IMG/VR virus record: IMGVR_UViG_3300027114_000002
Span: 1-36,863 of that record
Strand: one strand, 5' to 3'
Source: a virus
Length of the DNA stretch: 36,863 nucleotides
The translations under genes and the position numbers were made by a program. The notes under the pieces were generated by a model, which was not told where the DNA came from, made no database searches, and worked only from the letters and a program-made list of their open reading frames with translations. This document shows, piece after piece, positions 1 through 36,863 of the stretch (its first letter is position 1; every line of letters begins with the position of its first letter).

Positions 1-99
1 AAGGCATCACGGAGAAGGATGCTATCCTAGCGGCAGTACGCGGTTTAGTTAACCGTGAAATAAGTTCGAGCAATGAACTGACTGATGATGAGATCACGC
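1..99. repeat. Left copy of the 99-bp terminal direct overlap (identical to 36765..36863)
   Basis: I compared the two ends base by base and they match exactly. Confidence 0.95.
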
Positions 100-134
100 T
101 TATTATCAAAAACCTGGCGGTTGTCGGTTCATGA
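1..134 (+). CDS. 3' end of the wrap-around annealase-like gene that starts at 36347 (partial in this linearisation)
   Basis: The reading frame from 36347 continues through the 99-bp terminal overlap. It ends at TGA 132..134, which overlaps the ATG at 131 (ATGA). Confidence 0.6.
   Translation, partial: GITEKDAILAAVRGLVNREISSSNELTDDEITLIIKNLAVVGS
113..122 (-). promoter_or_regulatory. Copy F of the exact 10-mer AACCGCCAGG (reverse orientation), 9 nt upstream of the dCMP deaminase ATG
   Basis: The + strand reads CCTGGCGGTT. A second AACCG half-site follows on the minus strand (gAACCGacAACCGCCAGG). Confidence 0.5.
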
Positions 135-556: not shown

Positions 557-984
557 GCGCTTTACAAATGATTTTGGATAATCAAAGAAAATTGCAGTTA
601 AAGTCATATGGAGTAGATATTACTACTTTTGATGAAGAACAAAGAGCAGCATATATCCGAGACATGTCTTTGGCATTAACAGATGAGTTGCACGAAGCAT
701 TAAATGAAACCGGTTGGAAACCATGGGCTACAAGTCGGCATATAAACCGATTGGCATTTATTGGTGAAATGATAGATGTACTTCATTTTTGGTGTAATTT
801 AGTTTTAGTTGCAAATGTCAATGAACAAGAGATTTTAGATGTCTATTTTGCTAAAGCCGAAAAGAATGCTAAGCGTCAATTGGTTGGTTACGACGGAGTA
901 GAAGGCAAGTGCAAGACTTGTGGACGAGCATATGATGATGCAGCAGTCCTATGTACTCCAATTGCTTGCGAGCACATAGAATGA
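553..984 (+). CDS. All-alpha NTP pyrophosphohydrolase (dimeric dUTPase/MazG/dCTPase-like) with a C-terminal Cys cluster
   Basis: It has the acidic metal-binding helices DELHEALNE and EMIDVLHF typical of the MazG/dimeric dUTPase superfamily. A GGAGG RBS lies upstream. The C-terminal tail reads CKTCG...C...C. Confidence 0.65.
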   Translation: MSALQMILDNQRKLQLKSYGVDITTFDEEQRAAYIRDMSLALTDELHEALNETGWKPWATSRHINRLAFIGEMIDVLHFWCNLVLVANVNEQEILDVYFAKAEKNAKRQLVGYDGVEGKCKTCGRAYDDAAVLCTPIACEHIE

Positions 985-1979: not shown

Positions 1980-3015
1980 AACCATCTACTGGGAAGACTT
2001 TAAGAAGTATTATGACAAAGCTGCCATCTTGCAAACTATAAACATTGCAAGTGACAAAGGCCGTGATACTTCTGAAGATCTACATGTAGATGATCCTTTG
2101 CAACATCACATTACTATTTACGACACAGTAGATCGTGAGTTTGCCGGATTTAGCAATGCTATCCAGCAGATTTGGTATGGATCAAACAATCCAAAAAAAT
2201 GGCAAGTTGATAGTCGTTTTGATGGTTACAACTTGCATGCAATGGATTGGTTTTATCTTTTTATGATTCACAGAGTGACTGGATCAGGTGCTTCGTTTAG
2301 TTATGACCATGGATTTAGAAACAGTATACTTTCAGATATGGCTCTCAAAACTGATAACATGATTCATATGAGAAACTATGTCTTAAGTGAGATGAAAACT
2401 GGTAGACCAATTTTTACAAGTATTGGTAATCAGATTCCACAATTTCCTAAGCCAAATGCAGAGTATCCTCGTGGATCGCAACTTTACATTTCAGAATATA
2501 TGCCTCATTTGGTTAAAGATTTTTATACTCATTTGTCCTATAATCCATTGACGATGTCCATTAGAGATGGGGTTGATTGGATCAATGAATGGCACAAATC
2601 TCAAGGTCTTAAGTGTTTCCATTTTGTAATGACAGCATTTGTAATGGATGTTGCTCAATATTTCCCTACATTGATAGATCCATGGAGTCAAGTAAACTAT
2701 GGAAGCAATGCAATCAAGGCGTTGAATTTATTGTTTAAGAACGAAGGTTACAAGCAAAAAGACTTTTTAGATGCTGCAATGGAGATCATTTGTAATGAGT
2801 TTAGATCTCCTTACGATCCGCGCGACCATGAAAGAAACTTAGGTAAAGGATTAAGTTTAGAAGATGTTGCATGTGATTATGTACGTTACGTTGAATGTTA
2901 CGTACCAAAAGGTTATGAACATTTAGAACCTTGGCAAGTAACAAACAAATCACTGATTCCTCATCATGCAAAGCATTGGACATACCACAAACACTTGGAG
3001 GCTAAAAATGTTTAA
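1963..3015 (+). CDS. Hypothetical ~350 aa protein, a candidate base-modification enzyme by context only
   Basis: It is a long ORF with coding-like composition. The start is uncertain (ATG at 1942 or 1963). I recognise no catalytic motif with certainty, although an HRVTGSGASF segment is notable. Confidence 0.45.
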   Translation: MPQITETIYWEDFKKYYDKAAILQTINIASDKGRDTSEDLHVDDPLQHHITIYDTVDREFAGFSNAIQQIWYGSNNPKKWQVDSRFDGYNLHAMDWFYLFMIHRVTGSGASFSYDHGFRNSILSDMALKTDNMIHMRNYVLSEMKTGRPIFTSIGNQIPQFPKPNAEYPRGSQLYISEYMPHLVKDFYTHLSYNPLTMSIRDGVDWINEWHKSQGLKCFHFVMTAFVMDVAQYFPTLIDPWSQVNYGSNAIKALNLLFKNEGYKQKDFLDAAMEIICNEFRSPYDPRDHERNLGKGLSLEDVACDYVRYVECYVPKGYEHLEPWQVTNKSLIPHHAKHWTYHKHLEAKNV

Positions 3016-3895
3016 GATAACAGAAGACTCTTCGAGTAAGTATTCATACAAGTCACGTGAAGAATGGTTAGATCTTGCAGGCGATTGGGTTGATGAAACT
3101 CAAATGCCAAATATAGGTACATTTCACGGTGCAACAATATGGGACGATTCTGTAACTGGAGTTGGTACAAAAGGTCGTTGGGGAGATCTATTAGTTAAAA
3201 CTATGGAATCAGATCATCTGGTTTATGTACAACCTAGAGTCGGTTGGGCAGGAGTTTCATTAGCTGCTCTTGCAAAGAAATATAACAAAAAGTTAACATT
3301 GTTCATGCCTTCTTCAAAAGTTGTAAGTGACCATCAATTAGTTTGTATTGAAAGAGGGGCAAATCCAATCTTTCGAAGAATTGCAGCAATGCCAGTTCTA
3401 AACAAATATGCAAAAGATTGGGCAGAACAAAATAATGCTCAGTTTGTGCCATTTGGTTTGGATCATCCACTAGTTGTTGCGGCTGGAGTGAAATCAACAA
3501 TTCAACAATGGGGAGCTCGAGATGAACCAAGAGACGTTGTATCAGTTATTAGTACAGGAGTTCTCACGAGAACTCTCCAAATTGCTTGGCCAAATGCAAC
3601 CTTCCACGGAATTGCAGTTGCAAGAAACTTACATGCAGGAGAGATCGGAAGAGCGGACGTTACAACTTACCATAAAGCTTTCAGAGAAAAAGCTGAGTAT
3701 GCAGACAAGATCAATGAAGAGATCAACTCCGCGCCAACCTACGATTGCAAAGGTTTAGAAAGGTTTATGTTGGACAAAACATCTGCTCCTAAAACACCTT
3801 TAACTTTATTGTGGAATGTGGCAGGTGACGTAAAACCAGTTATAATGGACCATTCACAAGTTGATAGTTTCAGAGAATGGGGTGAGTTTAGATGA
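3008..3895 (+). CDS. PLP-dependent enzyme, fold type II (ACC deaminase/D-Cys desulfhydrase/TrpB-like)
   Basis: A GGAGG RBS lies 6 nt before ATG 3008. WDDSVTGVGTKGRWGDLL resembles the K(R/E)DD..GGNKxRK PLP-lysine motif. It is followed by a VYVQPRVGWAGVSLAALAKKYNKKLTLFMP Rossmann-like segment. Confidence 0.55.
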   Translation: MFKITEDSSSKYSYKSREEWLDLAGDWVDETQMPNIGTFHGATIWDDSVTGVGTKGRWGDLLVKTMESDHLVYVQPRVGWAGVSLAALAKKYNKKLTLFMPSSKVVSDHQLVCIERGANPIFRRIAAMPVLNKYAKDWAEQNNAQFVPFGLDHPLVVAAGVKSTIQQWGARDEPRDVVSVISTGVLTRTLQIAWPNATFHGIAVARNLHAGEIGRADVTTYHKAFREKAEYADKINEEINSAPTYDCKGLERFMLDKTSAPKTPLTLLWNVAGDVKPVIMDHSQVDSFREWGEFR

Positions 3896-4335
3896 TTACA
3901 ATCATCGAAGGTTCTGATGGAACAGGCAAAACAACTTATGCTCAAAAATTAACAGAACGATACAATGCACAATATTTGCATGCCGAACAACCAAGATCTA
4001 GATTATGGGTTGATGAATATATTCGACCATTAACTTCTAGTAACATGGTATTAGATCGATGGCATTTAGGTGAATTTGTATGGCCAAAGATTTTTGGAAG
4101 AGTATCATTATTTGATGAAACCACATTTGATTATTGCAATTGGGAACTTGCTAAACTTGGAGCTAGGTTAATCCTTTTAACAAGATCAGAAGATGCAATA
4201 GCTGAAGAATTATTAAGACGTGGCGAAGAAATGCAAATCGATGCAGTATTACATTCAAGATCTTTATTTGTAGAAGCTTTTAGACAAGTGAAATATTTAG
4301 ACAAAACAATAATCCATAGTGAGGTGGTTAGGTAA
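3892..4335 (+). CDS. P-loop nucleotide kinase, thymidylate kinase (Tmk)-like dNMP kinase
   Basis: IIEGSDGTGKTT matches the Tmk P-loop (EGxDGxGKTT). A DRW motif sits at the DRY/DRH position. LILLTRSEDAIAEELLRRGEE aligns with the Tmk lid region. At 147 aa it is short for the family. Confidence 0.7.
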   Translation: MITIIEGSDGTGKTTYAQKLTERYNAQYLHAEQPRSRLWVDEYIRPLTSSNMVLDRWHLGEFVWPKIFGRVSLFDETTFDYCNWELAKLGARLILLTRSEDAIAEELLRRGEEMQIDAVLHSRSLFVEAFRQVKYLDKTIIHSEVVR

Positions 4336-5144
4336 TGCATATAATTACAGAAAATCCAAGCGAAGCTTTAGAGTTAGCAACTCAGTATGTTATTGAACAT
4401 GGTGAAGCCATATCTCCTCGCGGAATGGTTACTAGAGAACTTCTTAATGTAACTTTACAAGTAGAAAAGCCATGGAACATACCTGTATCTATGGAAAACC
4501 GTAAACTAAATCATAATATCGGTATCAAAGAAGCCTTACAACTTGTTGGACAAGTTACGGATCCAGAAGCAATGACAAGTACCAGTCAAGTGTTTGGAAA
4601 GTTTATGGATAATGGAATACTTCATGGTGCTTATGGTCCGCGTATTCACGGTAATCTAAACAAAGTTGTTGAGCAGTTAAAAAAAGATTACTCTACAAGA
4701 CAAGCTGTTTTGACCATCTTTGATTCTAACAAAGATCTAAATGTTGATGTTAAAGATGTTCCTTGTACCTTAAACCTACAGTACTTTATTAGAGACAATA
4801 AGTTAATTGCTCGAACAAATATGAGAAGTAATGACGTATTTCTAGGTCTTCCATATGATTTAACTCAGTTTATTGCTTTACAAGGAGCAATTGCAAAAGC
4901 TTTAGATATTGAAATGGGTCAATACGTTCACGTTGTTGGAAGTATGCACATTTATGATGAACATATACCTCAAGCTCAATGGATTAAAGCATACTTCAAC
5001 GGATCATTCAAAGACTATGAACCAATGTGGACTGGCAATAATATTGGTGAAATCAGTCATACTGCAAGATCTATTCTTAAAGGTAACATTCCTGAACGTT
5101 TAACCCGTTTTGAAAGATTTTTAGCAGGTAAAATCAATGACTGA
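4335..5144 (+). CDS. Thymidylate synthase superfamily enzyme, predicted deoxycytidylate 5-hydroxymethyl- (or methyl-) transferase
   Basis: DVPCTLNLQYF carries the catalytic Cys. MRSNDVFLGLPYD aligns with E. coli ThyA QRSCDVFLGLPFN. GSMHIYDEH aligns with GGDTHLYSNH. Asp replaces the Asn177-equivalent residue. Confidence 0.8.
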   Translation: MHIITENPSEALELATQYVIEHGEAISPRGMVTRELLNVTLQVEKPWNIPVSMENRKLNHNIGIKEALQLVGQVTDPEAMTSTSQVFGKFMDNGILHGAYGPRIHGNLNKVVEQLKKDYSTRQAVLTIFDSNKDLNVDVKDVPCTLNLQYFIRDNKLIARTNMRSNDVFLGLPYDLTQFIALQGAIAKALDIEMGQYVHVVGSMHIYDEHIPQAQWIKAYFNGSFKDYEPMWTGNNIGEISHTARSILKGNIPERLTRFERFLAGKIND

Positions 5145-8477: not shown

Positions 8478-8627
8478 ATAACATAATGTTATATTAAATC
8501 CCATAGAGGGCCAACGGGTGGTATGGTATGGCCTAAAAGTACATGCATAAACCGCGCTGGATACCCCGCATCCATGGGAGCGTGCAAAGTATCAAAATTA
8601 TTGATTTGACCAAACTGGAGGAATTTG

Positions 8628-10754: not shown

Positions 10755-11104
10755 TGACAGCTGGAATTTATAACGCAACCATAGATCAAGGCGCAACATG
10801 GAGCGTTACAGTCACATATACAGATTCAACTGGCGCACCAATCAACTTGACTGGTTATACAGCAGCAATGCAGGTTCGCCAACAGTATAATTCTACAGAT
10901 GCAGATCTAACATTAACCAGTCCTAATGGTGGAATTGTTATCACACCTTTGACTGGAGTTATTGTTATTACAATGACAGCTACACAAACAGCTTCTCTTG
11001 AAGAAGGTTTCTATGTGTATGATGTCGAACTTACATCAGGAACTTTTAAAGATCGTATGATGCAAGGGCAATTGACTGTTGCTCCAGAGGTGACGCGTGT
11101 CTGA
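10754..11104 (+). CDS. Small beta-rich (Ig-like) structural protein
   Basis: The composition is Thr/Val-rich with alternating beta-strand patterns. The gene is translationally coupled to its neighbours. Confidence 0.4.
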
Positions 11105-13112
11105 TAATCAAATCACCGTTGTCAAAGATGTCAATACAGTAACTATTGCTGATGCTGGTACTCAAGGTCCTATCGGTCCTACCGGTCCTACCGGTGCAAC
11201 CGGTATTCAAGGACCAACTGGCGCAACAGGTCCTACAGGTTCTCAAGGAATTCAAGGCGTAACAGGTCCTACTGGAGCACAAGGAATCCAAGGACCTACT
11301 GGTCCTACCGGTTCTCAAGGAGTTACAGGTCCAACAGGAGCGCAAGGACCAACCGGTCCTACTGGTCCTCAAGGAATTCAAGGCGTTACCGGACCGACAG
11401 GTCCGCAAGGCATTCAAGGAATTCAAGGACCAACCGGACCAACCGGCGCACAGGGAATTCAGGGTCAAACAGGACCGACCGGACCACAAGGAATTCAGGG
11501 TCCGACAGGACCGACTGGAGCACAAGGAATCCAAGGAGAAACCGGACCTACAGGACCAACAGGTTCTCAGGGAATCCAGGGACCGACTGGTCCAACTGGA
11601 CCGCAGGGAATTCAAGGACCGACTGGACCGACTGGACCGACTGGAGCAGATTCATTTGTAACAGGACCAACGGGATCAACAGGTCCACAAGGAATCCAAG
11701 GTGTTCAAGGTATACAAGGAATTGAAGGACCAACTGGTCCAATAGGACCAACAGGATCTACTGGACCAACAGGAGCAGCTTCAACTGTTACTGGTCCGAC
11801 TGGCGCGACAGGACCAACCGGTCCGCAAGGTGTTTCAGGACCTACAGGACCTACAGGATCTGCTGGCGCAGATGGAGATAGATACAAAACTACATCCACT
11901 ACGTCACTATTAGTTGGCAATGGCACAAAAACTTTAACTACTGTTGATCTTAATTTAGATTATTCAACAGCTCAGAACGTTGTAATTTCATACGACATAA
12001 ATAATGTTATGCGCGGTGGAGTTGTAAGTTATAACGGAACAACTGGAGTTTTAGTTGTAGATGTAATTAAACATGATGGTGCCGGAACATATACATCTTG
12101 GGAAATTAACTTAGATGGATCAGTTGGAATCCAAGGTGCAACAGGTCCGACAGGACCGACAGGTGCAACTGGAACTATTGGTGCAACTGGAGCAACTGGA
12201 GCAACTGGAGCCACAGGTCCTACCGGTTCAACAGGTTTAACAGGTGATACCGGACCTACTGGTCCGACCGGTGCGCAAGGAATTCAAGGTGTCCAAGGAA
12301 TCCAGGGAGTTACAGGACCGACCGGTCCGCAAGGACCAACCGGTCCGACCGGAGCGCAAGGTATTCAAGGAGAAATTGGCGCGACAGGACCGACCGGTCC
12401 GCAAGGAATTGAAGGACCAACTGGTCCAACAGGTCCTCAAGGAGATCAGGGAATTCAAGGTGTTACCGGTCCGACTGGTCCTCAGGGAATTCAGGGTCAA
12501 ACCGGACCTACAGGTCCTCAGGGAGATCAGGGAATCCAGGGACCGACAGGTCCGACAGGTCCGCAAGGCATTCAAGGAGTTACAGGTCCAACAGGTGCCC
12601 AGGGCATTCAAGGCGATATCGGCCCAACAGGTCCAACAGGTGCCCAGGGAATTCAAGGTGTAACTGGTCCAACTGGCCCAACAGGCGCAGTCGGTGCGAC
12701 AGGCCCCGCTGGAACCAACGGCGCCACAGGTCCAACAGGTCCTGCGGGTACAAACGGCGCGACAGGTCCTACAGGTGCGACAGGTGCGGCAGGTGCCGCG
12801 GCTGCTACCACATACTCTTACACAGCCACAGCTGGACAAACGACATTCAGTGGCGCAGATTTGAACACACTCACTCTTGCCTACACTGTTGGTGCTGAGC
12901 AAGTCTACCTCAATGGCGTGCTCCTTGTACGAGGCAGCGATTATACAGCAAGCAACGGCACCAGCGTTGTGCTTGCAAGTGGCGCCGTTGTTAGCGATTC
13001 GCTTTTGGTTGTAGCGTACGGCGCATTTAACGTCGCCAACACCTACACACAAGTACAAGTTGACGCATTACTTCAAAGTTCAGTCGCAGCTGACGTTATG
13101 GACATCTACTAG
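11097..13112 (+). CDS. Collagen-like (Gly-X-Y) repeat fibre protein
   Basis: There are two long uninterrupted G-X-Y tracts (GPTGPQGIQ-type, about aa 22-260 and 345-560). They are separated by a globular insert and followed by a ~110 aa globular C-terminal domain. Confidence 0.85.
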
Positions 13113-29608: not shown

Positions 29609-29859
29609 TGGCAGCTGCGGGGGATTTATCAAAAGACATTGGTGAAATACTTAAACCAACTCGTGATAAAAAGTGCATATTAGGAAAGTATTTTGAAGAT
29701 CTATCAGATGATGATTCTACTTCATTAGAAGTATTGTTAAACTCTACTGTATCTAACGCCAAAATATCTGATCTGCTTAATCGTCACGGATTTGCAATAG
29801 GTGAAACTGCAATTTGGAAACATAGAGCTGGCAGTTGTGCCTGCGTGAGGCCTCAATGA
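29608..29859 (+). CDS. Hypothetical small protein (possible HTH)
   Basis: It is an ORF with TAATG coupling to the upstream gene. Confidence 0.4.
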   Translation: MAAAGDLSKDIGEILKPTRDKKCILGKYFEDLSDDDSTSLEVLLNSTVSNAKISDLLNRHGFAIGETAIWKHRAGSCACVRPQ

Positions 29860-30905
29860 CAATTTCTGAAGAAGCAAAACAATTACAACTTGAGTCTGAT
29901 CCAAATGTTACTGAATTACGTCAAACACTCGTACGAACACAAAAAGAATTATCTAAAGCAAAACAACGCACAGAAGAATTAGTAGAAGCCACAATCCAAG
30001 CATGTAAAGATGCAACTTTGGCTTTAGGTCCAATGAAACCTATTGAAGGTCCAAAACCAGATAAACGCCGCAAAAGAGCAGAAGTTGCTTTGTGGCATTT
30101 AACTGATTGGCAAGGTGCAAAAGTAACTCCTAGTTATAACTCAGAAATCATGAGAACTAGAGTTATGGACTTTACAATAAAGGCAACTAAAATTACTGAA
30201 ATACAAAGACAAGACCATCCAGTCAATGATGTTGTTATCTGCTTTGGTGGAGATATGGTCGAAGGTCTTTTTAATTATCCAGCTCAATTGTGGGAAATTG
30301 ATCTTAGTCTTTATGACCAGTACATAACTGTTAGTCGTCTGATTGTAGATGTTGTAAGGCAAGCACTAGCAGTTTATCAACATGTAACTGTAATTGCAGA
30401 ATGGGGAAATCATGGCCGAATCGGAAACAAAAGAGCAGACGTACCGAAGTCTGACAATTTTGATCGTATGTGTTATGAGCTTGCTCGTCAGTTACTTTGT
30501 TCTGAAGAAGCAACTGCTAAAAGACTGACATGGGATCCACGCCATGGTGTTGAAGATATTCAACGCATTGAAATCGGTAATTATCGAGCTTTGCTTATGC
30601 ACGGCGATGAAGTTGGTAGATCTGGTTTTGCTTCTCCGGCCGGATGGCAAGCAGCTGGAAACCGTTGGAAAGCCGGAGCATACGACTGGGAATTTCAAGA
30701 TATATACCTCGGTCATTACCATCGTCATGCGCAAGAACCATTGTCAGATGGTCTTGGATCTGTATATTGGACCGGTTCAACAGAGTCCGATAACCGCTAC
30801 GCACGAGACTCTATGGCGGCCTCAGGTGTTCCTTCTCAAAGATTGCACTTCATTGATCCCGAACGAGGTCGTGTCACTGCTTGTTATCAAGTTTGGTTAG
30901 ACTAA
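29856..30905 (+). CDS. Calcineurin-like metallophosphoesterase with an N-terminal coiled coil
   Basis: Motifs are GGDMVEG (GDxxD-like), WGNHGR (GNH), LLMHGDE and LGHYHRH (GHxH). The first DxH motif appears to be LTDWQ. Confidence 0.7.
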   Translation: MTISEEAKQLQLESDPNVTELRQTLVRTQKELSKAKQRTEELVEATIQACKDATLALGPMKPIEGPKPDKRRKRAEVALWHLTDWQGAKVTPSYNSEIMRTRVMDFTIKATKITEIQRQDHPVNDVVICFGGDMVEGLFNYPAQLWEIDLSLYDQYITVSRLIVDVVRQALAVYQHVTVIAEWGNHGRIGNKRADVPKSDNFDRMCYELARQLLCSEEATAKRLTWDPRHGVEDIQRIEIGNYRALLMHGDEVGRSGFASPAGWQAAGNRWKAGAYDWEFQDIYLGHYHRHAQEPLSDGLGSVYWTGSTESDNRYARDSMAASGVPSQRLHFIDPERGRVTACYQVWLD

Positions 30906-31767: not shown

Positions 31768-31782
31768 AAGAACAAAAAAGAA

Positions 31783-31820
31783 GCCCCTGCCTTTCGGCAG
31801 GGGCCTTTTTCTTTTTGTTT
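31783..31820. terminator. Bidirectional rho-independent terminator between convergent genes
   Basis: The hairpin GCCCCTGCC-tttc-GGCAGGGGC is followed by CTTTTTCTTTTTGTTTT and preceded by an A-rich tract (aaagaacaaaaaagaa). Confidence 0.85.
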
Positions 31821-32785
31821 TAGCGAACCATCTCCAAAACTCGATCTGAGAGAGATGTTCCTTGATTCATCATGAATCGCTCGCCTGCAGCAAAATCATC
31901 TGCTGAACGAGTTGTCCGGGTCCATTGTTCGAACTCTGTGAAAGCATTAACAATTCCCCATGCTGTTCCCTTGATATTTTCTTGTGTAGATCCATTCCAG
32001 ATTCCTAGAAGTGTTCCACGGCGTTCTTCAACATTCTTAACTTGACGATCTGTCATGTTTTCTTCGATTGGCATTACATCTTTGACGATTGTCCAGAAGT
32101 CAGAGTTAGCAACTTTCTTATCAAATAGAGAAGATGAAAGAAGGTTGAATTCTTCATTTGACTTAAGAACCACACCTAGAGTTTGACGAACATCTTCGAT
32201 CTTGACATTCATACGAGCTGAATGACGGAAAGAGATAGAAGAAGCATTAGTCCAACGTGTCATTCCGTTTGTGCAGATCAGACGAAGATACTTGATTTCA
32301 AAGCGAAGTGAATCTGTTCCATCGTGAGTATTTGATGCAACTAAAAATGCTTCTACTGGATCAACATTCTTAAGAGTAAGATCAAGAGTGTTTGGAAGCT
32401 TTGCAGCCATAAAGATCTTCTTGCCACCGCGTAATTCACCAGCTGACTGGTAAATCGCACCGGCTTCGTACATAACAGAGTCCACAATATTGACGATGTC
32501 GTTGTTCTGGACAATTGTGTATGTAGGTGAAGTGATTCCAAGAACAGAAGCTGATCCGTCCTTATTGACACGAGTTGTAGCAACTTTGTCTTCAAGCTGA
32601 ACGACTGTCACGCCGCCATTGTTAATTGCTGTAGTTGAAAGTGGAGTGTGCTGAACTTCCCAATCAAGATTTGCATTCTCAAGAACTTGAACTGCAGAGA
32701 TTTGCTCGTCACTTGAATTTACCCATGTTGCTGTGCTGATCCATGGAGCCTTGCGACGTGCTGCGTTCTGGATTTGTACTGACAT
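31820..32785 (-). CDS. DUF932-like phage/plasmid protein (TIGR03299-like), function unknown
   Basis: APWISTATWV...LENANLDWEV...TTRVNKDGSASVLGITSPTYTIVQNND...LRGGKKIFMAAKL...NTHDGTDSLRFEIKYLRLICTNGM matches the pattern I recall for this family. Confidence 0.7.
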   Translation of the reverse strand: MSVQIQNAARRKAPWISTATWVNSSDEQISAVQVLENANLDWEVQHTPLSTTAINNGGVTVVQLEDKVATTRVNKDGSASVLGITSPTYTIVQNNDIVNIVDSVMYEAGAIYQSAGELRGGKKIFMAAKLPNTLDLTLKNVDPVEAFLVASNTHDGTDSLRFEIKYLRLICTNGMTRWTNASSISFRHSARMNVKIEDVRQTLGVVLKSNEEFNLLSSSLFDKKVANSDFWTIVKDVMPIEENMTDRQVKNVEERRGTLLGIWNGSTQENIKGTAWGIVNAFTEFEQWTRTTRSADDFAAGERFMMNQGTSLSDRVLEMVR

Positions 32786-32794
32786 TTTTTGCCT

Positions 32795-32804
32795 CCTGGC
32801 GGTT
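32795..32804 (-). promoter_or_regulatory. Copy A of AACCGCCAGG, fused to the SD of the DUF932-like gene
   Basis: The minus strand reads CAUCAGaaUAAACCGCCAGGAGGcaaaaaAUG. Confidence 0.55.
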
Positions 32805-32807
32805 TAT

Positions 32808-32873
32808 TCTGATGGACTCATCAGCAGTGTCATTTAACACTGGACACTCCTTGCGGAGTGTTTCGTCCTTAGA
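32808..32873 (-). ncRNA. Type II hammerhead self-cleaving ribozyme
   Basis: The minus strand reads ucuaaGGAC-GAAA-CACUCC-gcaa-GGAGUG-UC-CAGUGU-uaaaug-ACACUG-CUGAUGA-GUCC-aucaga. All core nucleotides are present: C3 U4 G5 A6 U7 G8 A9, G12 A13 A14, A15.1-U16.1 and C17. G10.1-C11.1 closes the open stem II, while stems I and III are capped. Confidence 0.85.
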
Positions 32874-33009
32874 TCTTATGAAGATATACTGCGGCAGCTT
32901 GGCAATTTATGCATTCATGCGATTCTGCACCATATTTTCCCCAAGCAACTTCTTGAGTAGTTTTACAAAAAACACATTTTGCAATTACATATTTTGGCAT
33001 AGTAATCAT
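32869..33009 (-). CDS. Small zinc-ribbon protein (46 aa), first cistron of the minus-strand operon
   Basis: An AGGAGGA RBS lies 6 nt before the ATG (33009). MITMPKYVIAKCVFCKT...HECINCQ contains two CxxC pairs. The stop codon lies inside the 5' strand of ribozyme stem II. Confidence 0.55.
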   Translation of the reverse strand: MITMPKYVIAKCVFCKTTQEVAWGKYGAESHECINCQAAAVYLHKI

Positions 33010-33019
33010 TTGATTTCCT

Positions 33020-33029
33020 CCTGGCGGTT
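33020..33029 (-). promoter_or_regulatory. Copy B of AACCGCCAGG, fused to the SD of the zinc-ribbon gene and preceded by a hairpin
   Basis: The minus strand reads GCAACC-aacc-GGUUGC-caUAAACCGCCAGGAGGaaaucaaAUG. Confidence 0.55.
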
Positions 33030-33104
33030 TATGGCAACCGGTTGGTTGCTCATAGGTACATTCAATACTGTCCATCGTCCTTTGTACACTTCATTTGAAA
33101 AGAT

Positions 33105-33133
33105 CTTTTGGAACCTTTTGGAACCTTTTGGAG
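33105..33133. repeat. 10-bp tandem iterons CTTTTGGAAC x2 plus CTTTTGGAG
   Basis: I read these directly. They have helical-turn (10-bp) phasing and lie in the divergent intergenic region. Confidence 0.85.
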
Positions 33134-33191
33134 TCCGTTTAGTCCAGATCGAGCGGCCAGGTTTGTCCCAGGACCACGGACATATCGATCC

Positions 33192-33207
33192 GAGTATATT
33201 TATACTC
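33192..33207. promoter_or_regulatory. Perfect palindrome GAGTATA-tt-TATACTC (operator-like)
   Basis: I read this directly. It lies in the divergent intergenic region. Confidence 0.5.
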
Positions 33208-33225
33208 CACACAAATGGACCCGCG

Positions 33226-33250
33226 TCCTGGTGGATCCTGGTGGTTCTGG
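33226..33250. repeat. 10-bp tandem iterons TCCTGGTGGA, TCCTGGTGGT, TCTGG
   Basis: I read these directly. Confidence 0.8.
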
Positions 33251-33377
33251 CTAATCTGTATGCTGCCGGCCAGAACAGATGTTCTAGTAAATAAGATCTT
33301 AAAGAAACATTTCCACAAATGGTGGATATTTGTCCACATTCAGTGTATATTGGTCCTTGTAAGCAACCGCTTACCTA

Positions 33378-33387
33378 AACCGCCAGG
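33378..33387 (+). promoter_or_regulatory. Copy C of AACCGCCAGG, fused to the SD of the first rightward early gene and preceded by a hairpin
   Basis: The sequence reads GTAAGC-aacc-GCTTAC-cTAAACCGCCAGGAGtaaaaATG. Confidence 0.55.
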
Positions 33388-33394
33388 AGTAAAA

Positions 33395-33610
33395 ATGAAC
33401 ACAATGTCACAAGAACAAACATCATGGAACAACGTTTGTGGACTTCCAGTTAAGTTTCTATTAACTAGAATTGTATTGAACTACGCAAACGGATCTTCAT
33501 CTCTTGAAGAATACACAGAATACTACAATCGCATGACTGTAGAACAAAAGCAATTTGCTGATGACATGGTAATGGAAATTGCAATTGCTACAAAGAAGGA
33601 GATGATCTAA
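33395..33610 (+). CDS. Hypothetical early protein (71 aa)
   Basis: The ATG follows the SD within motif copy C. The upstream part of the track ORF is rejected. Confidence 0.5.
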   Translation: MNTMSQEQTSWNNVCGLPVKFLLTRIVLNYANGSSSLEEYTEYYNRMTVEQKQFADDMVMEIAIATKKEMI

Positions 33611-33825
33611 TGTCACCACTTATTAAAGACATTATGAAAGTTACAAAAATGTCCGAATCTAATGCAAAAGAAATTGAAACAATTATTGAAGAATATTTTG
33701 ATTTAGATCAGTCAGAAGCAACTCAAAGCGAAATCAATTCTACTATTCGAGATGCAGTAGCATTTAAGAATATGAAATGTAATCATCCAAAAGGAACTCA
33801 ACACGGATTGGAGTGTATCGCATAA
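33610..33825 (+). CDS. Hypothetical early protein (71 aa)
   Basis: It has TAATG coupling to the upstream gene. Confidence 0.5.
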   Translation: MSPLIKDIMKVTKMSESNAKEIETIIEEYFDLDQSEATQSEINSTIRDAVAFKNMKCNHPKGTQHGLECIA

Positions 33826-34016
33826 TGAGTCACAAACTAATTGACGAGAATGGCGTAGAAATTCAAGGAAAGATCAGAATGGTATTTGTCTGCGATATGT
33901 GTGGCAACACAGCTGATTTTTACCATGGTATGTCCACATACGCAAAAACTATTGGTGAAAAAGTAACTGGTGAAAGTTATTGTTCTGAAATCTGTGCAAG
34001 AAAGGCGGTTGCATAA
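33825..34016 (+). CDS. Small Cys-rich (zinc-ribbon-like) protein
   Basis: The Cys pattern is CDMCGN...CSEIC. It has TAATG coupling to the upstream gene. Confidence 0.5.
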   Translation: MSHKLIDENGVEIQGKIRMVFVCDMCGNTADFYHGMSTYAKTIGEKVTGESYCSEICARKAVA

Positions 34017-34174
34017 TGACTAAAAGATCTGGAAAACTTAAGTGTGCTGCTTGTGGATCAGAAGTTTTGGTTTCTAGTAGAGCATATGGAGGATTACCGC
34101 GTTGGGTTTGCGCTGTTCAAACTTGTATAAACTCAGAAATTGCTTTAGATTTGGAGGAGTCAAGTGGCTTGTAA
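34016..34174 (+). CDS. Small zinc-ribbon-like protein (52 aa)
   Basis: The Cys pattern is KCAACGS...WVCAVQTC. It has TAATG coupling and falls below the track cut-off. Confidence 0.4.
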   Translation: MTKRSGKLKCAACGSEVLVSSRAYGGLPRWVCAVQTCINSEIALDLEESSGL

Positions 34175-34280
34175 TTTATGTCAAGATAAAGGATTTATTT
34201 TCCATATTTTTAGGCAAGAATATGATGTTGAAACTTGTCCATGTCAGCAACCAAAGGAGATTAAAAATGAAACTAACTAA
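34164..34280 (+). CDS. Small Cys-rich protein (38 aa, GTG start)
   Basis: A GGAGGAG RBS lies 4 nt before the GTG. The Cys pattern is ACNLCQDKG...CPC. Confidence 0.3.
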   Translation: MACNLCQDKGFIFHIFRQEYDVETCPCQQPKEIKNETN

Positions 34281-34413
34281 ACGTGGTAAACGAGTTCGTG
34301 CTGTATTGATCTTAATTGGTCTTTGGGCATGGTGGAAAATATCTGGAAATCTTTGGTGGGTTGAAGATCATTATTGTTGGGGTGAAATGGTTGAATGTTA
34401 CTTTCCAAAGTAA
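34267..34413 (+). CDS. Small membrane protein (48 aa)
   Basis: An AAGGAG RBS lies 7 nt before ATG 34267. The sequence has a basic N-terminus and a TM segment (AVLILIGLWAWW). Confidence 0.5.
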   Translation: MKLTKRGKRVRAVLILIGLWAWWKISGNLWWVEDHYCWGEMVECYFPK

Positions 34414-34421
34414 TGGACGAC

Positions 34422-34451
34422 CAACCGGAGAACCGCCAGGTAAACCGGTTG
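34422..34451 (+). promoter_or_regulatory. Copy D of AACCGCCAGG presented in the loop of a 7-bp hairpin
   Basis: The sequence reads CAACCGG-agAACCGCCAGGtaaa-CCGGTTG. It contains three AACCG half-sites. Confidence 0.5.
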
Positions 34452-34522
34452 ATCGCTAGCGGATTGTACATTATATTTTTGATATTTGTTTTGTCCGCTT
34501 ATGAAACACGGCAAATCAATGT

Positions 34523-34528
34523 TACAAT
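34523..34528 (+). promoter_or_regulatory. Candidate -10 element (TACAAT) upstream of the Xis/MerR-like gene
   Basis: The hexamer lies in a 138-bp intergenic gap and its -35 is poor (TTATGA at 18 nt). This is only a weak call. Confidence 0.2.
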
Positions 34529-34551
34529 GGTCACTACGGACAGATTAGGAT

Positions 34552-34740
34552 ATGCGCATGACAACTGAAAATCGAAAGTCCCTTAGCACAGGGCAAGCTG
34601 CAAAGCTCATTGGACGCAACTCACGAACTGTTCGTCGTTGGGTTGATCTTGGAAAAGTTGAAGGTTATAAAACACCTTCTAACTTACGTTACGTTTATCA
34701 AGATGCATTAGACGCATTGATGAATGGAACCAAAAGCTAA
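34552..34740 (+). CDS. Excisionase/MerR-type HTH DNA-binding protein
   Basis: LSTGQAAKLIGRNSRTVRRWVDLGKVEGYK is a typical HTH_17 pattern. An alternative start at 34558 has better SD spacing. Confidence 0.65.
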   Translation: MRMTTENRKSLSTGQAAKLIGRNSRTVRRWVDLGKVEGYKTPSNLRYVYQDALDALMNGTKS

Positions 34741-34815
34741 CTAACACAACGACTAGGAGGCAACTATGTTTGTGTTTATTTATGCTGTTTCTATCCGCCG
34801 TCAGAGGAAAGATGG

Positions 34816-35265
34816 CTGAAGGTCTTAGCAATCGTTGTAGCCTTTTTATTAGTAACACCAAATGCAAATGCGGTGGACTATAAAACAGCTGCAGCAAGAG
34901 TTCCAAAAGATCAAATTGCTTATGCAAAATGCGTAAGTCATCATGAATCAAGAGGGAACTATAAGGCAGTAGGAGATGTGTCTTCTGCAAGAGGACGATG
35001 GCAATTTTTAGATAAGCAATGGAGACATGGTTTATCTTTTATGGTTGCAAACAGATTAGTAGATCATGGAATGCCAAAATCTAGGGTTAAGAAGCTGGTG
35101 AAACACCTGCAATCAAAGTCCATAGATGCATGGGATCCGATCTACCAAGATGTAGGATTTGTAGCAGCGTTGAACGCAAAGTACCATTGGTCCGGTTGGA
35201 CACATTGGGCGGTCAATTCTAAATGTAATGAATTAGTACCAACTACAATAAAACGAAAGGCATAA
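34816..35265 (+). CDS. Secreted transglycosylase-like (SLT/Rpf-like) protein, start unresolved
   Basis: The in-frame upstream sequence encodes the Sec signal peptide KVLAIVVAFLLVTPNANA|VDY. The body has HHESRGNYKAV...ARGRWQFLDKQW. No ATG, GTG or TTG lies in frame upstream of 34873, and a CTG sits at 34816. Confidence 0.55.
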   Translation: MKVLAIVVAFLLVTPNANAVDYKTAAARVPKDQIAYAKCVSHHESRGNYKAVGDVSSARGRWQFLDKQWRHGLSFMVANRLVDHGMPKSRVKKLVKHLQSKSIDAWDPIYQDVGFVAALNAKYHWSGWTHWAVNSKCNELVPTTIKRKA

Positions 35266-35266
35266 A

Positions 35267-35602
35267 ATGTCAGAAACCGCCAGGGAATGGTTCGAGCCAC
35301 GACAATTATCTTTATTGGCTGATCCGATTGATGAACAGTTTAATAAGTTTCATCATGAGAATCCACATATCTATCGTCAGTTAGTTGATCTAGCATACCA
35401 ATGGAAAAATGCTGGACATGACATTTGTTCAATAGATTTGTTGATTAACAAATTGAGATGGGAAATTGGTATCCGATCAACGGGGGATCAATTTGCTATC
35501 TCAAACAATTACGCTAGTCGCTATTCAAGGTTAATTGAGGCAACAGAAAAACCACTTGCTAATTTCTTTACTAAGAGAACTTTAAAGAGCTCATGGGACT
35601 AG
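35267..35602 (+). CDS. Hypothetical protein
   Basis: It is a well-packed ORF. Motif copy E lies at codons 3-6. Confidence 0.5.
   Translation: MSETAREWFEPRQLSLLADPIDEQFNKFHHENPHIYRQLVDLAYQWKNAGHDICSIDLLINKLRWEIGIRSTGDQFAISNNYASRYSRLIEATEKPLANFFTKRTLKSSWD
35275..35284 (+). promoter_or_regulatory. Copy E of AACCGCCAGG (just inside the 5' end of the CDS)
   Basis: The sequence reads ATGtcagaAACCGCCAGGgaatgg. Confidence 0.4.
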
Positions 35603-36363: not shown

Positions 36364-36863
36364 AAATTATGTAGATGTACCACAGCGAATAAAACTGTTT
36401 TATGAGAAATATCCAGAAGGTTCACTGCAAATGGATCCTGATCTGCAGTTTCAGACAGTTGGAGATCAGATTATTGTGATTGGTAGAGCTTATGCTTACC
36501 GTCATCCAGGAGATGAAAAGCCCGGTATTGGTACAGCTCAAGAGTATTTACCAGGAAAAACTAATTTTACTCGTGGCAGTGAGATCCAAAACCTTGAGAC
36601 AAGTTGCTGGGGTAGAGCAATTGGAGCATTAGGTATAGGCATAGATAAAGCAATTGCAAGTAAAGAAGAAGTTGAACTTGCAATGGAACGCAATAAACCA
36701 GATAAAGTCATGATGAAACGTGCAAATCCTGGTTTGAAGCAAATAGTAGAGTTGCTAGGAGCAAAAGGCATCACGGAGAAGGATGCTATCCTAGCGGCAG
36801 TACGCGGTTTAGTTAACCGTGAAATAAGTTCGAGCAATGAACTGACTGATGATGAGATCACGC
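36347..36863 (+). CDS. Putative ssDNA-annealing/recombination protein (Rad52/Sak-like), 5' part that continues at 1..134
   Basis: An AGGGGGA RBS lies upstream. GIGTAQEY...RGSEIQNLETSCWGRAIGALGIGI resembles the annealase core. The gene follows an exonuclease. It is missing from the ORF track because it runs off the window end. Confidence 0.45.
   Translation, partial: MDKRLENYVDVPQRIKLFYEKYPEGSLQMDPDLQFQTVGDQIIVIGRAYAYRHPGDEKPGIGTAQEYLPGKTNFTRGSEIQNLETSCWGRAIGALGIGIDKAIASKEEVELAMERNKPDKVMMKRANPGLKQIVELLGAKGITEKDAILAAVRGLVNREISSSNELTDDEIT
36765..36863. repeat. Right copy of the 99-bp terminal overlap
   Basis: It is identical to 1..99. Confidence 0.95.

Follow-up and report, generated by a model that had tools for sequence, protein, structure and literature searches.

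In a family of uncultured freshwater actinobacterial phages, the ribosome-binding regions of the early genes carry a 10-base word, AACCGCCAGG, at which a single regulator most likely docks to switch these genes together. The window, that is, the whole 36,863-nt stretch of viral DNA analysed here, holds six exact copies (A to F; see the table), against none in 100 dinucleotide-preserving shuffles, and eight matches against 0.88 expected when one mismatch is allowed. The word is the sole dispersed 10-mer of the genome, the remaining repeated 10-mers all lying within one collagen-like repeat gene, and its sub-words CCAGG, AACCG and CCGCC show no over-representation in the genome. Positions 1-99 repeat 36765-36863, so that the window closes as a circle and copy F forms part of the same early region as the other copies.

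The tag is retained at orthologous places in over 100 related contigs from metagenomes, even where protein identity falls to about 60%, with four to seven copies in each contig (112 loci fetched); in the lineages that keep it, the DUF932, exonuclease and helix-turn-helix (HTH) proteins are 58-80% identical. In the relatives' contexts and their alignment the 10-mer is identical between copies, whereas promoter, stem and spacer diverge. Statistically and by conservation, the tag is confirmed as a real observation. The preliminary description had listed the six copies as a word of the early region, and all are present at the positions and on the strands it gave; it had also proposed a regulator's recognition site, and conservation at orthologous positions in every related lineage fetched bears out a selected regulatory site. 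Its caution over the DNA or the RNA level was justified.

What might read such a word? Our best explanation, held tentatively, is that the tag acts as single-stranded RNA, either a translational operator or a cleavage tag, read by one trans-acting factor; AACCGCCAGG may, with the same reserve, form the unvarying centre of a leader tag that is specific to this lineage, associated with gene starts and active in the transcript. The closest known system is the SAS/ESAS of Cluster K mycobacteriophages: SAS follows the same positional logic as the tag, and a role in translation was proposed for it by its authors (PMC3203893, PMC11373665).

Table. Features of the tag system in the window; copies A to F are exact word matches
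Feature	Position	Strand	Remarks
Copy F	113..122	-	transcribed (+) strand reads CCUGGCGGUU, the tag complement
Conserved mRNA structure around copy F	73..132	+	outer stem 73-82 with 123-132; inner hairpin 83-92 with 99-108
Copy A	32795..32804	-	before DUF932 gene (31820-32785), downstream of ribozyme
Alternative hairpin CUGAUG-AGUC-CAUCAG preceding copy A	32809-32824	-	
Putative type II hammerhead ribozyme	32814..32868	-	upstream of DUF932 gene; Rfam RF02276
Ribozyme stem II, GGAC with GUCC	32868-65 with 32817-14	-	
Ribozyme GAA	32864-62	-	
Ribozyme stem III, loop GCAA	32861-55 with 32850-44	-	
Ribozyme C17	32843	-	predicted cut between 32843 and 32842
Ribozyme stem I	32842-37 with 32830-25	-	
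Ribozyme core CUGAUGA	32824-18	-	
Small zinc-ribbon-like gene, 46 aa	32869..33009	-	variable first cistron of leftward operon
Copy B	33020..33029	-	leftward operon leader; start ATG 33009
Copy B 5′ leader stem-loop UAUG-A-GCAACC-AACC-GGUUGC-CAUA	33030..33054	-	
Copy B -10-like TTGAAT	33060-33065	-	5 nt 5′ of stem-loop
Tandem near-copies CCACCAGGA and AACCACCAGG	33226..33246	-	spacer between divergent promoters
Copy C promoter-like site TGGATA, 17 nt, TATATT	33323..33351	+	from consensus scan only
Copy C 5′ leader stem-loop GUAAGC-AACC-GCUUAC	33359..33374	+	begins 7 nt past -10 box
Copy C	33378..33387	+	rightward early operon leader; AGG begins AGGAG; start ATG 33395
Copy D hairpin	34418..34455	+	tag 34431-34440 in 16-nt loop AG-AACCGCCAGG-UAAA; between small early genes and HTH gene
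Promoter-like site of HTH gene	34501-34528	+	
Small winged-HTH protein, HTH_17/excisionase/BldC-like	34552..34740	+	candidate DNA-level binder; Pfam HTH_17 E = 3e-6
Copy E	35275..35284	+	within codons 2-6 of conserved early gene 35267-35602 (PHROG 13625)

In the leaders the tag belongs to a cassette of fixed order: a −10 box, a covarying 5′ stem-loop, the tag fused to the Shine-Dalgarno sequence, 7-10 nt and the start codon. The box is sigma-70-like and is followed after 5-9 nt by a stem-loop of 6-10 bp, with 1-4 nt more before the tag, whose final three bases open the Shine-Dalgarno AGGAG(G). Across 34 distinct leader contexts, preceding about 30 different N-termini from roughly 20 gene families, the tag is always in the sense orientation and 7-10 nt 5′ of the start codon; the −10 box lies anywhere from 14 to 25 nt away from the tag, whereas the tag keeps a fixed distance to the start codon. 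The sequence at copies A, B and C is (A/U)AAACCGCCAGGAG(G/U), 5-7 nt, AUG, in agreement with the earlier report of three copies extended into the Shine-Dalgarno, and the three hairpins with 6-bp stems and 4-nt loops that it placed 1-2 nt 5′ of UAAACCG (CUGAUG/CAUCAG, GCAACC/GGUUGC and GUAAGC/GCUUAC) were all found. Covariation, likewise claimed, holds for the stems beside copies B, C and D, which carry compensatory changes in relatives: at the copy C position the leader stem exists in eight different versions, 100% paired, with such changes in four of six pairs. The copy C cassette stands before many different first genes in relatives and its −10 box is conserved in position in their alignment, with transcription probably starting at the promoter-like site. 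At copy B the −10 register is set by the TAGAAT that relatives carry in the corresponding place (the L120/L122 contexts), and in relatives different genes occupy the place of the 46-aa zinc-ribbon-like gene. Downstream cistrons of the early units overlap (ATGA, TAATG). The predicted accessibility of the tag in leaders nearly equals that of equivalent positions in untagged genes (mean unpaired probability 0.57 vs 0.50), which counts against an RNA reading, and so would a tag-Shine-Dalgarno fusion that was inherited from one ancestral cassette and not selected, as could be the case.

Could the cassette work without a dedicated factor? The tag would then be a cis-acting translation element that, with its 5′ hairpin, provides an optimised, nuclease-protected, unstructured ribosome-loading site (standby or enhancer); recombination would have copied the cassette around the early region as with the promoter-stem-loop cassettes (PeSLs) of T4-type phages, to which the leader cassettes can be likened (PMC2839356), and conservation of the word would reflect the recent copying of the cassettes and their use as recombination linkers. 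We consider this proposal improbable in each of its parts. An exonuclease/annealing-protein pair is encoded beside the region, as synteny shows, and 5′-terminal stem-loops are known mRNA stabilisers, both of which speak for it. So does the presence of the leader cassette before about 20 different, unrelated first genes with junctions within the tag-ATG spacer, the pattern described for PeSL-mediated shuffling (PMC2839356). However, divergence has touched promoter and stem but spared the 10-mer, which points to the word itself as the object of selection, and the remaining genes of the same phage make do with an ordinary short Shine-Dalgarno and no tag. To our knowledge, the tag beyond AGGAGG has no complementarity to the standard actinobacterial 16S rRNA 3′ end, a sequence that may not be the host's, and this too weighs against a factor-free element.

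The hairpin before copy A, earlier taken for an ordinary leader hairpin, has to be reinterpreted: its CUGAUGA is the catalytic core, and GUCC one strand of stem II, of what its sequence and pairing identify as a type II hammerhead ribozyme, predicted to be self-cleaving. The match to Rfam RF02276 scores 29.2 bits (E = 0.0035), under the gathering score of 37; all 17 pairs form in the seven variants, with four compensatory pairs in stem I, loop III reads GCAA, GUAA, AUAA, GCGA, UUCG or UUAC across relatives, and the element is conserved to 60% DUF932 identity. Copy A itself is the least constrained copy, since most relatives carry AAUCGCCAGG or AACCGCUAGG at its position and L348 has lost the tag there. 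A ribozyme that would recreate the order hairpin, tag, Shine-Dalgarno inside an operon, with no promoter needed, counts for a tag read as RNA.

Copies D and E are the most deeply conserved, yet both lie outside the leader cassettes, a further point against a factor-free element. Copy D occupies the loop of a 7-bp hairpin, as first described, with seven perfect pairs, or 11 if one mismatch is allowed; in the seven lineages compared, 95.5% of the stem is paired, compensatory changes affect eight of ten pairs and the loop never varies. Sites that are read single-stranded usually show just this combination of a constant loop and a drifting stem, so copy D counts for the RNA reading. The changes in the leader and copy D stems are all Watson-Crick on both sides, and the covariation is therefore no proof of which strand or nucleic acid folds. 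Extra AACCG pentamers flank four of the six copies (B, C, D and F), as the earlier mention of half-sites would have it, but L348 and L370, in which the loop is intact, lack them in the arms of copy D; the pentamers are thus not part of the recognition unit, and their dispensability favours RNA, as a multi-protomer DNA binder would need them. Copy E is kept directly past the ATG in L143, L370 and L348 (as AACCGCCAGA in L348) and keeps its place 5-8 nt from the start codon in orthologues that differ in the adjacent N-terminal residues, which also counts for the RNA reading; the structure model of its protein (pLDDT 52) is unusable. The degenerate copy reported upstream of terS, CATAAACCGCGCTGG, is present at 8546-8560; it differs from the tag at several positions, and we found no evidence that it belongs to the system.

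The main rival, unlikely but not negligible, makes the tag a double-stranded operator bound by the small winged-HTH protein, which is related to D29 Gp36, L5 Xis and BldC. Sitting just past the early promoters and at copies D, E and F, the protein would block initiation or elongation and so silence or reduce early transcription in the manner of stoperators and Gp36 sites, and the RNA hairpins would be unrelated stabilisers or attenuators. In phages, repeated DNA operators are far commoner than repeated RNA operators, which favours this reading, as does the fact that it covers both copy F, which is antisense, and copy E, which is intragenic, with no added assumptions. Among the candidate binders listed earlier, the Xis-like HTH protein is the one with outside evidence: it is 33% identical to D29 Gp36 over 46 residues (pairwise E = 2e-8), with a very similar recognition helix (NSRTVRRWV vs STKTVRRYI). 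In every lineage its gene follows copy D at a distance of about 110 nt, the recognition helix being as invariant as the tag, and a regulatory role is plausible because no integrase was found among the scanned window genes. The binding sites of D29 Gp36 are asymmetric, GC-rich repeats at gene ends (AGGCGGC, core GCGGC), where it represses downstream genes in a lytic phage that no longer needs an excisionase (PMC12266134); the tag complement CCTGGCGGTT shares GGCGG with these sites, and BldC-family proteins bind asymmetric repeats head to tail (PMC5859096). That the phage encodes a protein of such a family counts against the RNA reading, as does our finding no identifiable RNA-binding protein or nuclease among the early genes. 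Yet a DNA operator gives no reason for paired substitutions in the copy D stem around a fixed loop, or for a variable distance to the −10 box beside a fixed one to the start codon; the direct repeats that Gp36 and BldC need are not conserved at copy D in L348 and L370, and repeat spacing elsewhere varies from 7 to 15 nt. An intra-operon tag past a ribozyme, exactly at the Shine-Dalgarno, is an unexpected place for a promoter operator, and the HTH protein falls below the cut-offs of the BldC and excisionase NCBIfam models.

Copy F stands apart. It does lie just before the modification operon, as described, ending 8 nt 5′ of the dCMP deaminase ATG at 131, but it does not hold as a site of the core system: it is the sole copy antisense to transcription, is specific to the window's own clade (invariant in 10 orthologous contexts with variable flanks, absent in L348, L370, L372 and L271) and sits inside a separate conserved mRNA structure. 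This structure (z-score -3.1; 24 pairs, 98% paired, four compensatory pairs) has an outer stem that covers the deaminase AUG, and its many GC-to-GU changes are compatible only with + strand RNA. An antisense copy has no role in the RNA-tag model and so counts against it. It could have one if the tag were the target of antisense pairing with a complementary phage-made RNA segment, which we think improbable: copy F, at the junction of the structured element that starts the nucleotide-metabolism operon, would be one such segment, and CCUGGYGG repeats between the divergent promoters might be another, with pairing masking the Shine-Dalgarno of tagged cistrons and, at copy F, opening the stem that hides the deaminase start codon. 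The invariance of copy F despite the codons CTG, GCG and GTT in a 41% G+C genome fits such pairing, as does its place between the two covarying helices; the 10-bp duplex comes to -18.4 kcal/mol, dimerisation of a leader with F is predicted to gain 7.6-10.7 kcal/mol over the two separate folds, and the DUF932-leader variants C4 to U and C7 to U retain pairing through G-U. There is also a parallel in Cluster K: phage Anaya carries SAS 15 times in the sense orientation and once in reverse, and the reverse copy makes up the 10-nt loop, CCUCCUAUCC, of a strong hairpin located in a non-coding gap; the region is conserved in 138 Cluster K phages, with compensatory changes in 9 of 36 pairs. However, L348, L370 and L372, which keep the tag in leaders and at copies D and E, lack a complementary 7-mer where copy F would be, and L348 lacks one throughout 12.7 kb spanning the early region. 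The copy F outer stem persists in distant lineages with other junction sequences, so translational coupling alone explains the structure. The near-copies in the spacer between the divergent promoters are the exact 10-mer in some relatives and freely variable in others, which makes their membership of the tag system doubtful and weighs against a second segment, and the structure proposed for that spacer was not supported. One group of tagged genes has a local complement of the tag, which a conserved Asp-Gly-Gly peptide accounts for.

Each early transcription unit of the phage family begins with the leader cassette, whose stem-loop, judging from the probable start sites, would form the 5′ end of the mRNA, and at DUF932 hammerhead self-cleavage would yield an equivalent end of hairpin, tag and Shine-Dalgarno. 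Copy D displays the tag in a hairpin loop at the boundary between the small immediate-early genes and the remaining early region, and copy E places it just within the coding start of a conserved early gene. If the tag is indeed read as single-stranded RNA, the one trans-acting factor recognising it would most likely be an RNA-binding protein or endoribonuclease encoded by the phage. The tag overlaps the ribosome-binding site of each unit's first cistron, so that binding or cutting there would switch the translation or stability of all early units together, in one direction or the other, and downstream cistrons would follow through translational coupling.

The 10-mer AACCGCCAGG is the only dispersed repeated 10-mer in this phage genome. 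All six copies named in the preliminary description were confirmed (A at 32795, minus strand; B at 33020, minus; C at 33378, plus; D at 34431, plus; E at 35275, plus; F at 113, minus), against none in 100 shuffles, and its extended form UAAACCGCCAGGAG(G), three adjacent 6-bp hairpins, copy D hairpin and position of copy F had likewise been read correctly. Counted across the circle junction, the copies span 32795 to 122, with five in sense and one in antisense orientation; the structural region at 8.6-31.8 kb holds none, and sub-words of AACCGCCAGG show no enrichment in the window. Avoidance of Dcm-type (CCWGG) methylation or restriction was rejected as an explanation, with CCAGG and CCTGG at expected frequencies, as was extended Shine-Dalgarno pairing, the word having no complementarity beyond AGGAGG to the standard 3' end of actinobacterial 16S rRNA.

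Two of the earlier claims fared less well. The AACCG half-sites described around the word are enriched near four of the six window copies, but elsewhere their spacing is irregular (7-15 nt), and L348 and L370, two related metagenomic lineages, lack them in the arms of copy D; since two copy D stems lack AACCG, the flanking pentamers are not needed. The degenerate copy CATAAACCGCGCTGG at 8546-8560 is present, but we found no evidence tying it to the tag system. It is contained in a non-coding gap (8478-8627) between the HNH gene and terS that is likely the cos or packaging region.

The genome is circular, about 36.76 kb long and 41% G+C, and a 99-base terminal duplication (1-99 equals 36765-36863) in a circularly closed assembly makes features at the two window ends adjacent. 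Nearly all genes lie on the plus strand. The nucleotide-metabolism block, which also encodes two proteins of about 340-375 aa without assignment and a weak match to a PLP-dependent enzyme, resembles gene sets that make hypermodified thymidine or other non-canonical bases. A 671-aa gene at 11097-13112 holds every other repeated 10-mer of the genome; it is dense in repeated 9-12-mers such as AGGACCAACCGG and GGAATTCAAGG, which by their sequence suggest collagen-like Gly-X-Y repeats in a virion protein. We found no tRNA or tmRNA genes in the window and no nucleotide match to it in the phage collection. Among cultured phages Pontimonas phage phiPsal1 comes nearest (TerL 48% identical), and the host is therefore probably an aquatic actinobacterium.

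Features of the genome and of its early control region, by position in the window
Feature	Position	Strand	Context
Nucleotide-metabolism block	131-5144	+	dCMP deaminase, dUTPase_2-type, P-loop kinase-like and thymidylate-synthase-like proteins
WhiB, SSB, DnaD-like HTH protein, then HNH, terS, terL	HNH-terS-terL from ~8.2 kb	+	After the nucleotide block
Virion genes	After terL, up to bidirectional terminator 31781-31806	+	
DUF932 gene	31820-32785	-	Leftward from the same control region as the 46-aa gene
Type II hammerhead ribozyme (predicted)	32814-32868	-	Between the 46-aa gene and DUF932; cut predicted between 32843 and 32842
Zinc-ribbon-like gene, 46 aa	32869-33009	-	Leftward from the common control region
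Three TTTTGGAACC-type direct repeats	33106-33135		Spacer between divergent early promoters (33100-33300)
Promoter-like site CGGACA-18-TATACT	33177-33206		Same spacer
Tandem near-copies / TCCTGGTGGA repeats	33226-33245		Same spacer; exact in some relatives, free variation in others
Palindrome CCAGAACAGATGTTCTAG (also given as CCAGAACAnnTGTTCTGG)	33270-33287		Same spacer; conserved in all lineages; perfect 18-bp palindrome in L171
Rightward early operon	From 33395, across the circle junction into 131-5144	+	

Conservation in related phages was borne out. Scans of viral and metagenomic contigs gave more than 100 related stretches, most of them close (DUF932 90-98% identical), with deeper lineages at 80% (L143 and L372), 66% (L171 and L254) and 60% (L348) DUF932 identity, as well as L370. 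The early-region word occurs in all related lineages found, at four to seven copies per fetched stretch, and each of these lineages retains the core copies (leaders, D and E). The 14-mer TAAACCGCCAGGAG was found in 117 IMG/VR stretches, and because its matches outside the family are single, in unrelated contigs and without protein similarity to the window, we consider the word specific to this lineage; no analogous repeated word was found in phiPsal1, the nearest phage.

When the contexts were sorted, most copies turned out to share one cassette: a -10 box in constant register (TATATT, TATAAT, TAGAAT, TAGGAT or TTGAAT), followed after 5-9 nt by a short stem-loop, after a further 1-4 nt by the word and 7-10 nt later by ATG or GTG, with the AGG of the word opening the Shine-Dalgarno sequence AGGAG(G). 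The gap from word to start codon is always 7-10 nt across 34 distinct contexts, copies D, E and F being the exceptions, and the distance from -10 box to word varies between 14 and 25 nt. This cassette stands before about 30 different N-termini from about 20 gene families. Its stems are 6-10 bp long and without consensus sequence (AUGAGC, GUAAGC, GCAACC, AUCAGC, GUGAUC, AUAAGC and AUUAAC, each with its exact complement), and pairing is kept by compensatory changes: eight versions are 100% paired, with changes on both sides in 4 of 6 pairs, and although the stems were chosen by eye, which biases pairing counts, slid controls were only 22-31% paired. Because the stem starts 5-9 nt past the -10 box, it would occupy the extreme 5' end of the transcript. 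The predicted accessibility of the tag does not stand out, its unpaired probability of 0.57 in 59 leader contexts being no different from the 0.50 of control genes. Relatives also carry a stemless fourth early cassette, absent from the window, of the form TATAAT-GGTCCAGTACCACT-word (for example L349:3975-4020, GTCCGCAGTGTATAATGGTCCAGTACCACT-AACCGCCAGGAGG), which precedes either of two unrelated genes (MKVRDQ..., or MKYEYNDGG.../MEVQFNDGG...).

Copy A stands in front of the DUF932 gene. The hairpin CUGAUG-AGUC-CAUCAG described next to it does exist, but it is not a plain leader hairpin; it is an alternative fold between the core of a predicted hammerhead ribozyme and the tail after its stem II. 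The 95 nt 5' of DUF932 are near-invariant in all relatives though the upstream gene changes, and on the minus strand they read, in order, GGAC; GAA; ACACUCC-GCAA-GGAGUGU; C; CAGUGU-UAAAUG-ACACUG; CUGAUGA; GUCC. The core as read from the sequence is complete (CUGAUGA, GAA, A15.1-U16.1, C17) and invariant in all variants, the cleavage triplet is GUC, and stems I and III are loop-closed with stem II open and no mispaired bases adjoining the core. All 17 pairs form in each of seven variants. Four compensatory pairs convert CAGUGU/ACACUG of stem I into UGACGU/ACGUCA, with UGGCGU/ACGUCA and a G-U pair in L348, the tetraloop of stem III is swapped among relatives (GCAA, GUAA, AUAA, GCGA, UUCG, UUAC), and the element is kept down to 60% DUF932 identity. 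At gathering thresholds, Rfam gave no match anywhere in the window; the hammerhead was missed because its score against Hammerhead_II (RF02276), 29.2 bits, lies below the threshold of 37, and in permissive scans of the early region and positions 1-400 it was the sole credible match.

In its full catalytic core and its phage setting between genes of one operon the element is like other type II hammerheads. In most of these, but not all, loop I forms a pseudoknot with the tail that follows stem II (RF02276; PMC3088659); read by eye, only AUG/CAU (3 bp), or GAUG/CAUC (4 bp) in L143, could pair in this way here. It differs from them in scoring under the Rfam gathering threshold and in a tail, CAUCAG, that is exactly complementary to CUGAUG of the core; the resulting rival hairpin (32809-32824, minus strand) is invariant in all lineages and might keep the cleaved RNA locked or serve as a gate for the ribozyme. 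Cleavage would free a DUF932 mRNA beginning with the stem I hairpin, followed by a second hairpin, the word and the Shine-Dalgarno sequence, so that the ribozyme-made 5' end would have the same layout as the promoter-proximal leaders. The hammerhead is well supported, and its predicted role would be to separate a variable small gene from DUF932 within one operon. The word of copy A is the least constrained of all: exact matches are limited to the immediate relatives of the window, most relatives have AAUCGCCAGG, three lineages have AACCGCUAGG, and L348 has lost it.

Copies D and E present the word in other ways. The loop of copy D, (A)G-AACCGCCAGG-U(A/U)AA, does not vary among lineages, and the stem of 8-11 bp that closes it differs in each (GACCAACCGG; GAUUAACCGG; GAUCGGUUGG; CUAACCGG; GUUGGCUGG; AGCCGAUUGG), each version pairing with its complement; 95.5% of positions are paired, with changes on both sides in 8 of 10 pairs. 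Copy E falls within the first codons of a conserved early gene (35267-35602), as codons 3-6 in the window and codons 2-5 in L143, L348 and L370 (L348 has AACCGCCAGA), and its position is kept despite changed neighbours (MSETAREW in the window, MKTARSDD in L143). For the protein of this gene we found no family and no solved relative, and a single-sequence model reached a pLDDT of 52.

At which level is the word read? The word is under selection as a unit and is tied to start codons in sense orientation. Together with the covarying hairpins, the same layout at a ribozyme-linked copy, and persistence across lineages, this leads us to infer that it acts in the transcript. We think it fairly possible, though short of probable, that the word is a single-stranded RNA address for one trans-acting factor. 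Such a factor would determine how well the first cistron of every early unit is translated or how stable it is, and the tightly overlapping downstream cistrons would follow by coupling.

A DNA-level alternative, that the word is an operator for the small HTH protein encoded at 34552-34740, is somewhat unlikely in our judgement, yet it has specific points in its favour. This protein of 62 aa matches Pfam HTH_17 (E = 3e-6), matches the NCBIfam excise and BldC models only below their cut-offs, and is 33% identical to Gp36 of phage D29 with a nearly identical recognition helix; tag and recognition helix are both invariant in every lineage found. Gp36, of a lytic phage, binds asymmetric GC-rich repeats (AGGCGGC) and represses downstream genes, requiring at least two repeats 13-19 nt apart (PMC12266134, which also mentions RegB), and the related BldC proteins bind asymmetric repeats head to tail (PMC5859096). 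The parallels with these operators thus include a homologous small MerR-like winged-HTH protein, a GC-rich, asymmetric word whose complement has GGCGG in common with the Gp36 site, and a location at gene boundaries, 5' of the genes that would be controlled; an operator would also accommodate copies E and F readily. However, the window has a single 10-mer per site where Gp36 needs regularly spaced direct repeats, conserved repeats are lacking and the pentamers are dispensable. The copy D stem covaries around an invariant loop, the word keeps its distance from the start codon but not from the promoter, and the window sites are tied to start codons and RNA hairpins. Copy D always lies about 110 nt 5' of the gene for this HTH protein, a gene with an untagged leader and a promoter-like site of its own.

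A further candidate site for a DNA-binding protein occurs in the spacer that separates the divergent early promoters: the palindrome at 33270-33287 looks like an operator for a dimeric one. A small RNA with CCUGGYGG repeats was considered for this spacer and rejected, as RNAalifold gave a fold without covariation support and an alternative helix was no better than shuffles.

Copy F raised the possibility that the word pairs with a complementary RNA. On the transcribed strand it is the complement of the word, invariant in ten contexts with varying flanks, and a 10-bp duplex between the two would be worth -18.4 kcal/mol. It sits at the junction of a conserved mRNA structure (73-132, plus strand) in the 3' end of the gene before the dCMP deaminase, whose outer stem covers the deaminase AUG, itself overlapping the upstream stop codon (ATGA). 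Of its 24 pairs 98% are paired and four are compensatory, and many GC-to-GU changes fit only plus-strand RNA; these changes fall within coding sequence. The structure is probably a translational-coupling device, and its outer stem persists at the copy F site in distant lineages with other sequences. The stable duplex made antisense pairing attractive, but no complement stands at the copy F position in L348, L370 and L372, all of which retain the leaders and copies D and E, and L348 has none anywhere in 12.7 kb. Because the deeper lineages keep the core copies without it, we regard copy F as an addition of one clade outside the core system, and antisense pairing of the word as improbable here. 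A local complement inside tagged genes was also rejected, being confined to one protein family and explained by a conserved Asp-Gly-Gly.

The nearest described phenomenon to the window tag is the start-associated sequence (SAS) of Cluster K mycobacteriophages and its extended form (ESAS). The SAS is a 13-bp word, GGGATAGGAGCCC, that overlaps the Shine-Dalgarno sequence 3-9 bp before start codons of non-structural genes only, in one orientation apart from a single reverse copy and at 11-19 copies per genome, and its function is still unexplained; some copies come after an inverted repeat to which a promoter is now ascribed, and the ESAS are 17-bp imperfect inverted repeats with a consensus, whose departures from it, according to the authors, do not support RNA pairing (PMC3203893, PMC11373665, PMC12699233). 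Shared with the window system are a short asymmetric word whose copies are confined to the non-structural part of an actinophage's genome, a position a few bases before start codons and over the Shine-Dalgarno core of genes of different families, a nearly uniform orientation with one reverse copy, a subset with an upstream promoter-containing inverted repeat, and conservation beyond what 16S pairing explains. The window system is a second instance in logic and not by sequence or lineage. Its word, AACCGCCAGG, has AGGAG alone in common with GGGATAGGAGCCC, and a search for the latter at up to two mismatches, which worked as expected on Mycobacterium phage Anaya, did not match it. Copies are fewer (six in the window and four to seven per fetched relative stretch), the phage lineage and habitat differ from those of the Cluster K phages of Mycobacterium, and the stems drift in sequence while compensatory changes keep them paired, whereas ESAS arms have a conserved consensus. 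The window also adds the loop-displayed copy D, the first-codon copy E and a ribozyme-linked copy.

The lone reverse SAS of Anaya (JF704106; positions 59849-59904 of the record, 29850-29905 of our stretch L258) makes up the 10-nt loop, CCUCCUAUCC, of a strong hairpin that follows a terminator in the gp96-gp97 gap, which is non-coding. The hairpin region is conserved in 138 Cluster K phages, with compensatory changes in 9 of 36 predicted pairs, and we found no description of it in the literature searched. The hairpin may represent an RNA with the SAS complement on display, which keeps the antisense idea alive for Cluster K though it is weak for the window.

Other repeated phage sites share single aspects of the tag. 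The stoperators of Cluster A phages number 20-30, extend over the whole genome including late genes, and are bound by the two-domain immunity repressor of a temperate phage, of the L5 gp71 type (PMC9283540). They too are asymmetric repeated sites of 10-13 bp, oriented with transcription and often in short gaps before genes, through which one regulator would control many units; in contrast, the window copies are confined to the early region. Among the window genes scanned, neither a stoperator-type repressor nor an integrase family was detected.

The nearest functional analogues of the tag's action would be the targets of T4 RegA and RegB, which likewise place a sequence at or over the Shine-Dalgarno sequence of early mRNAs, read in RNA by a phage factor for joint early shut-off. 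GGAG is all that the T4 RegB endoribonuclease recognises, and the sites of the translational repressor RegA have a loose definition, whereas the window tag is a strict word of ten bases; neither protein has a detectable homologue in the window. The PeSLs of T4-type phages are also conserved cassettes of promoter, stem-loop and Shine-Dalgarno sequence before variable small early genes, plausibly recombination linkers in gene shuffling. PeSL stem-loops are terminators, number about 50 per genome, vary in position relative to the promoter (PMC2839356, PMC4122927) and, unlike the window cassettes, carry no extra conserved word. That the word itself is a recombination linker, or an enhancer acting without any factor, seems to us about as improbable as antisense pairing.

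The tag is genuine, conserved, specific to its lineage and associated with start codons, and its RNA anatomy is unusually clear. A tentative reading, which we hold with reserve, is that it constitutes a post-transcriptional early-gene regulon of an actinophage, built on a strict 10-nt single-stranded RNA address read by a dedicated phage factor. The address would follow hairpins at the 5' terminus or a 5' end made by the ribozyme, or occupy the loop of a hairpin. A new RNA-binding protein or nuclease with sequence specificity would read it, or, in certain clades, an RNA complementary to it.

SAS were described in mycobacteriophages in 2011 (PMC3203893) and mark a large share of early genes in phages used therapeutically. 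The window tag, unrelated to them, follows the same positional logic with far clearer RNA anatomy: covarying hairpins, a loop-displayed copy and a hammerhead that would produce an equivalent leader. This suggests that the phenomenon is general in actinophages. The hammerhead adds a well-supported predicted ribozyme with a defined genetic role, and for Cluster K there is now a testable idea, an RNA carrying the SAS complement in a hairpin loop. If the tag is read in RNA, it would point to a new sequence-specific RNA-binding regulator or nuclease and offer a cassette, compact and portable, with which genes could be controlled together in Actinobacteria; and if it does define a post-transcriptional regulon, it would provide the first mechanistic handle on start-associated sequences as a class, including the SAS of Cluster K.
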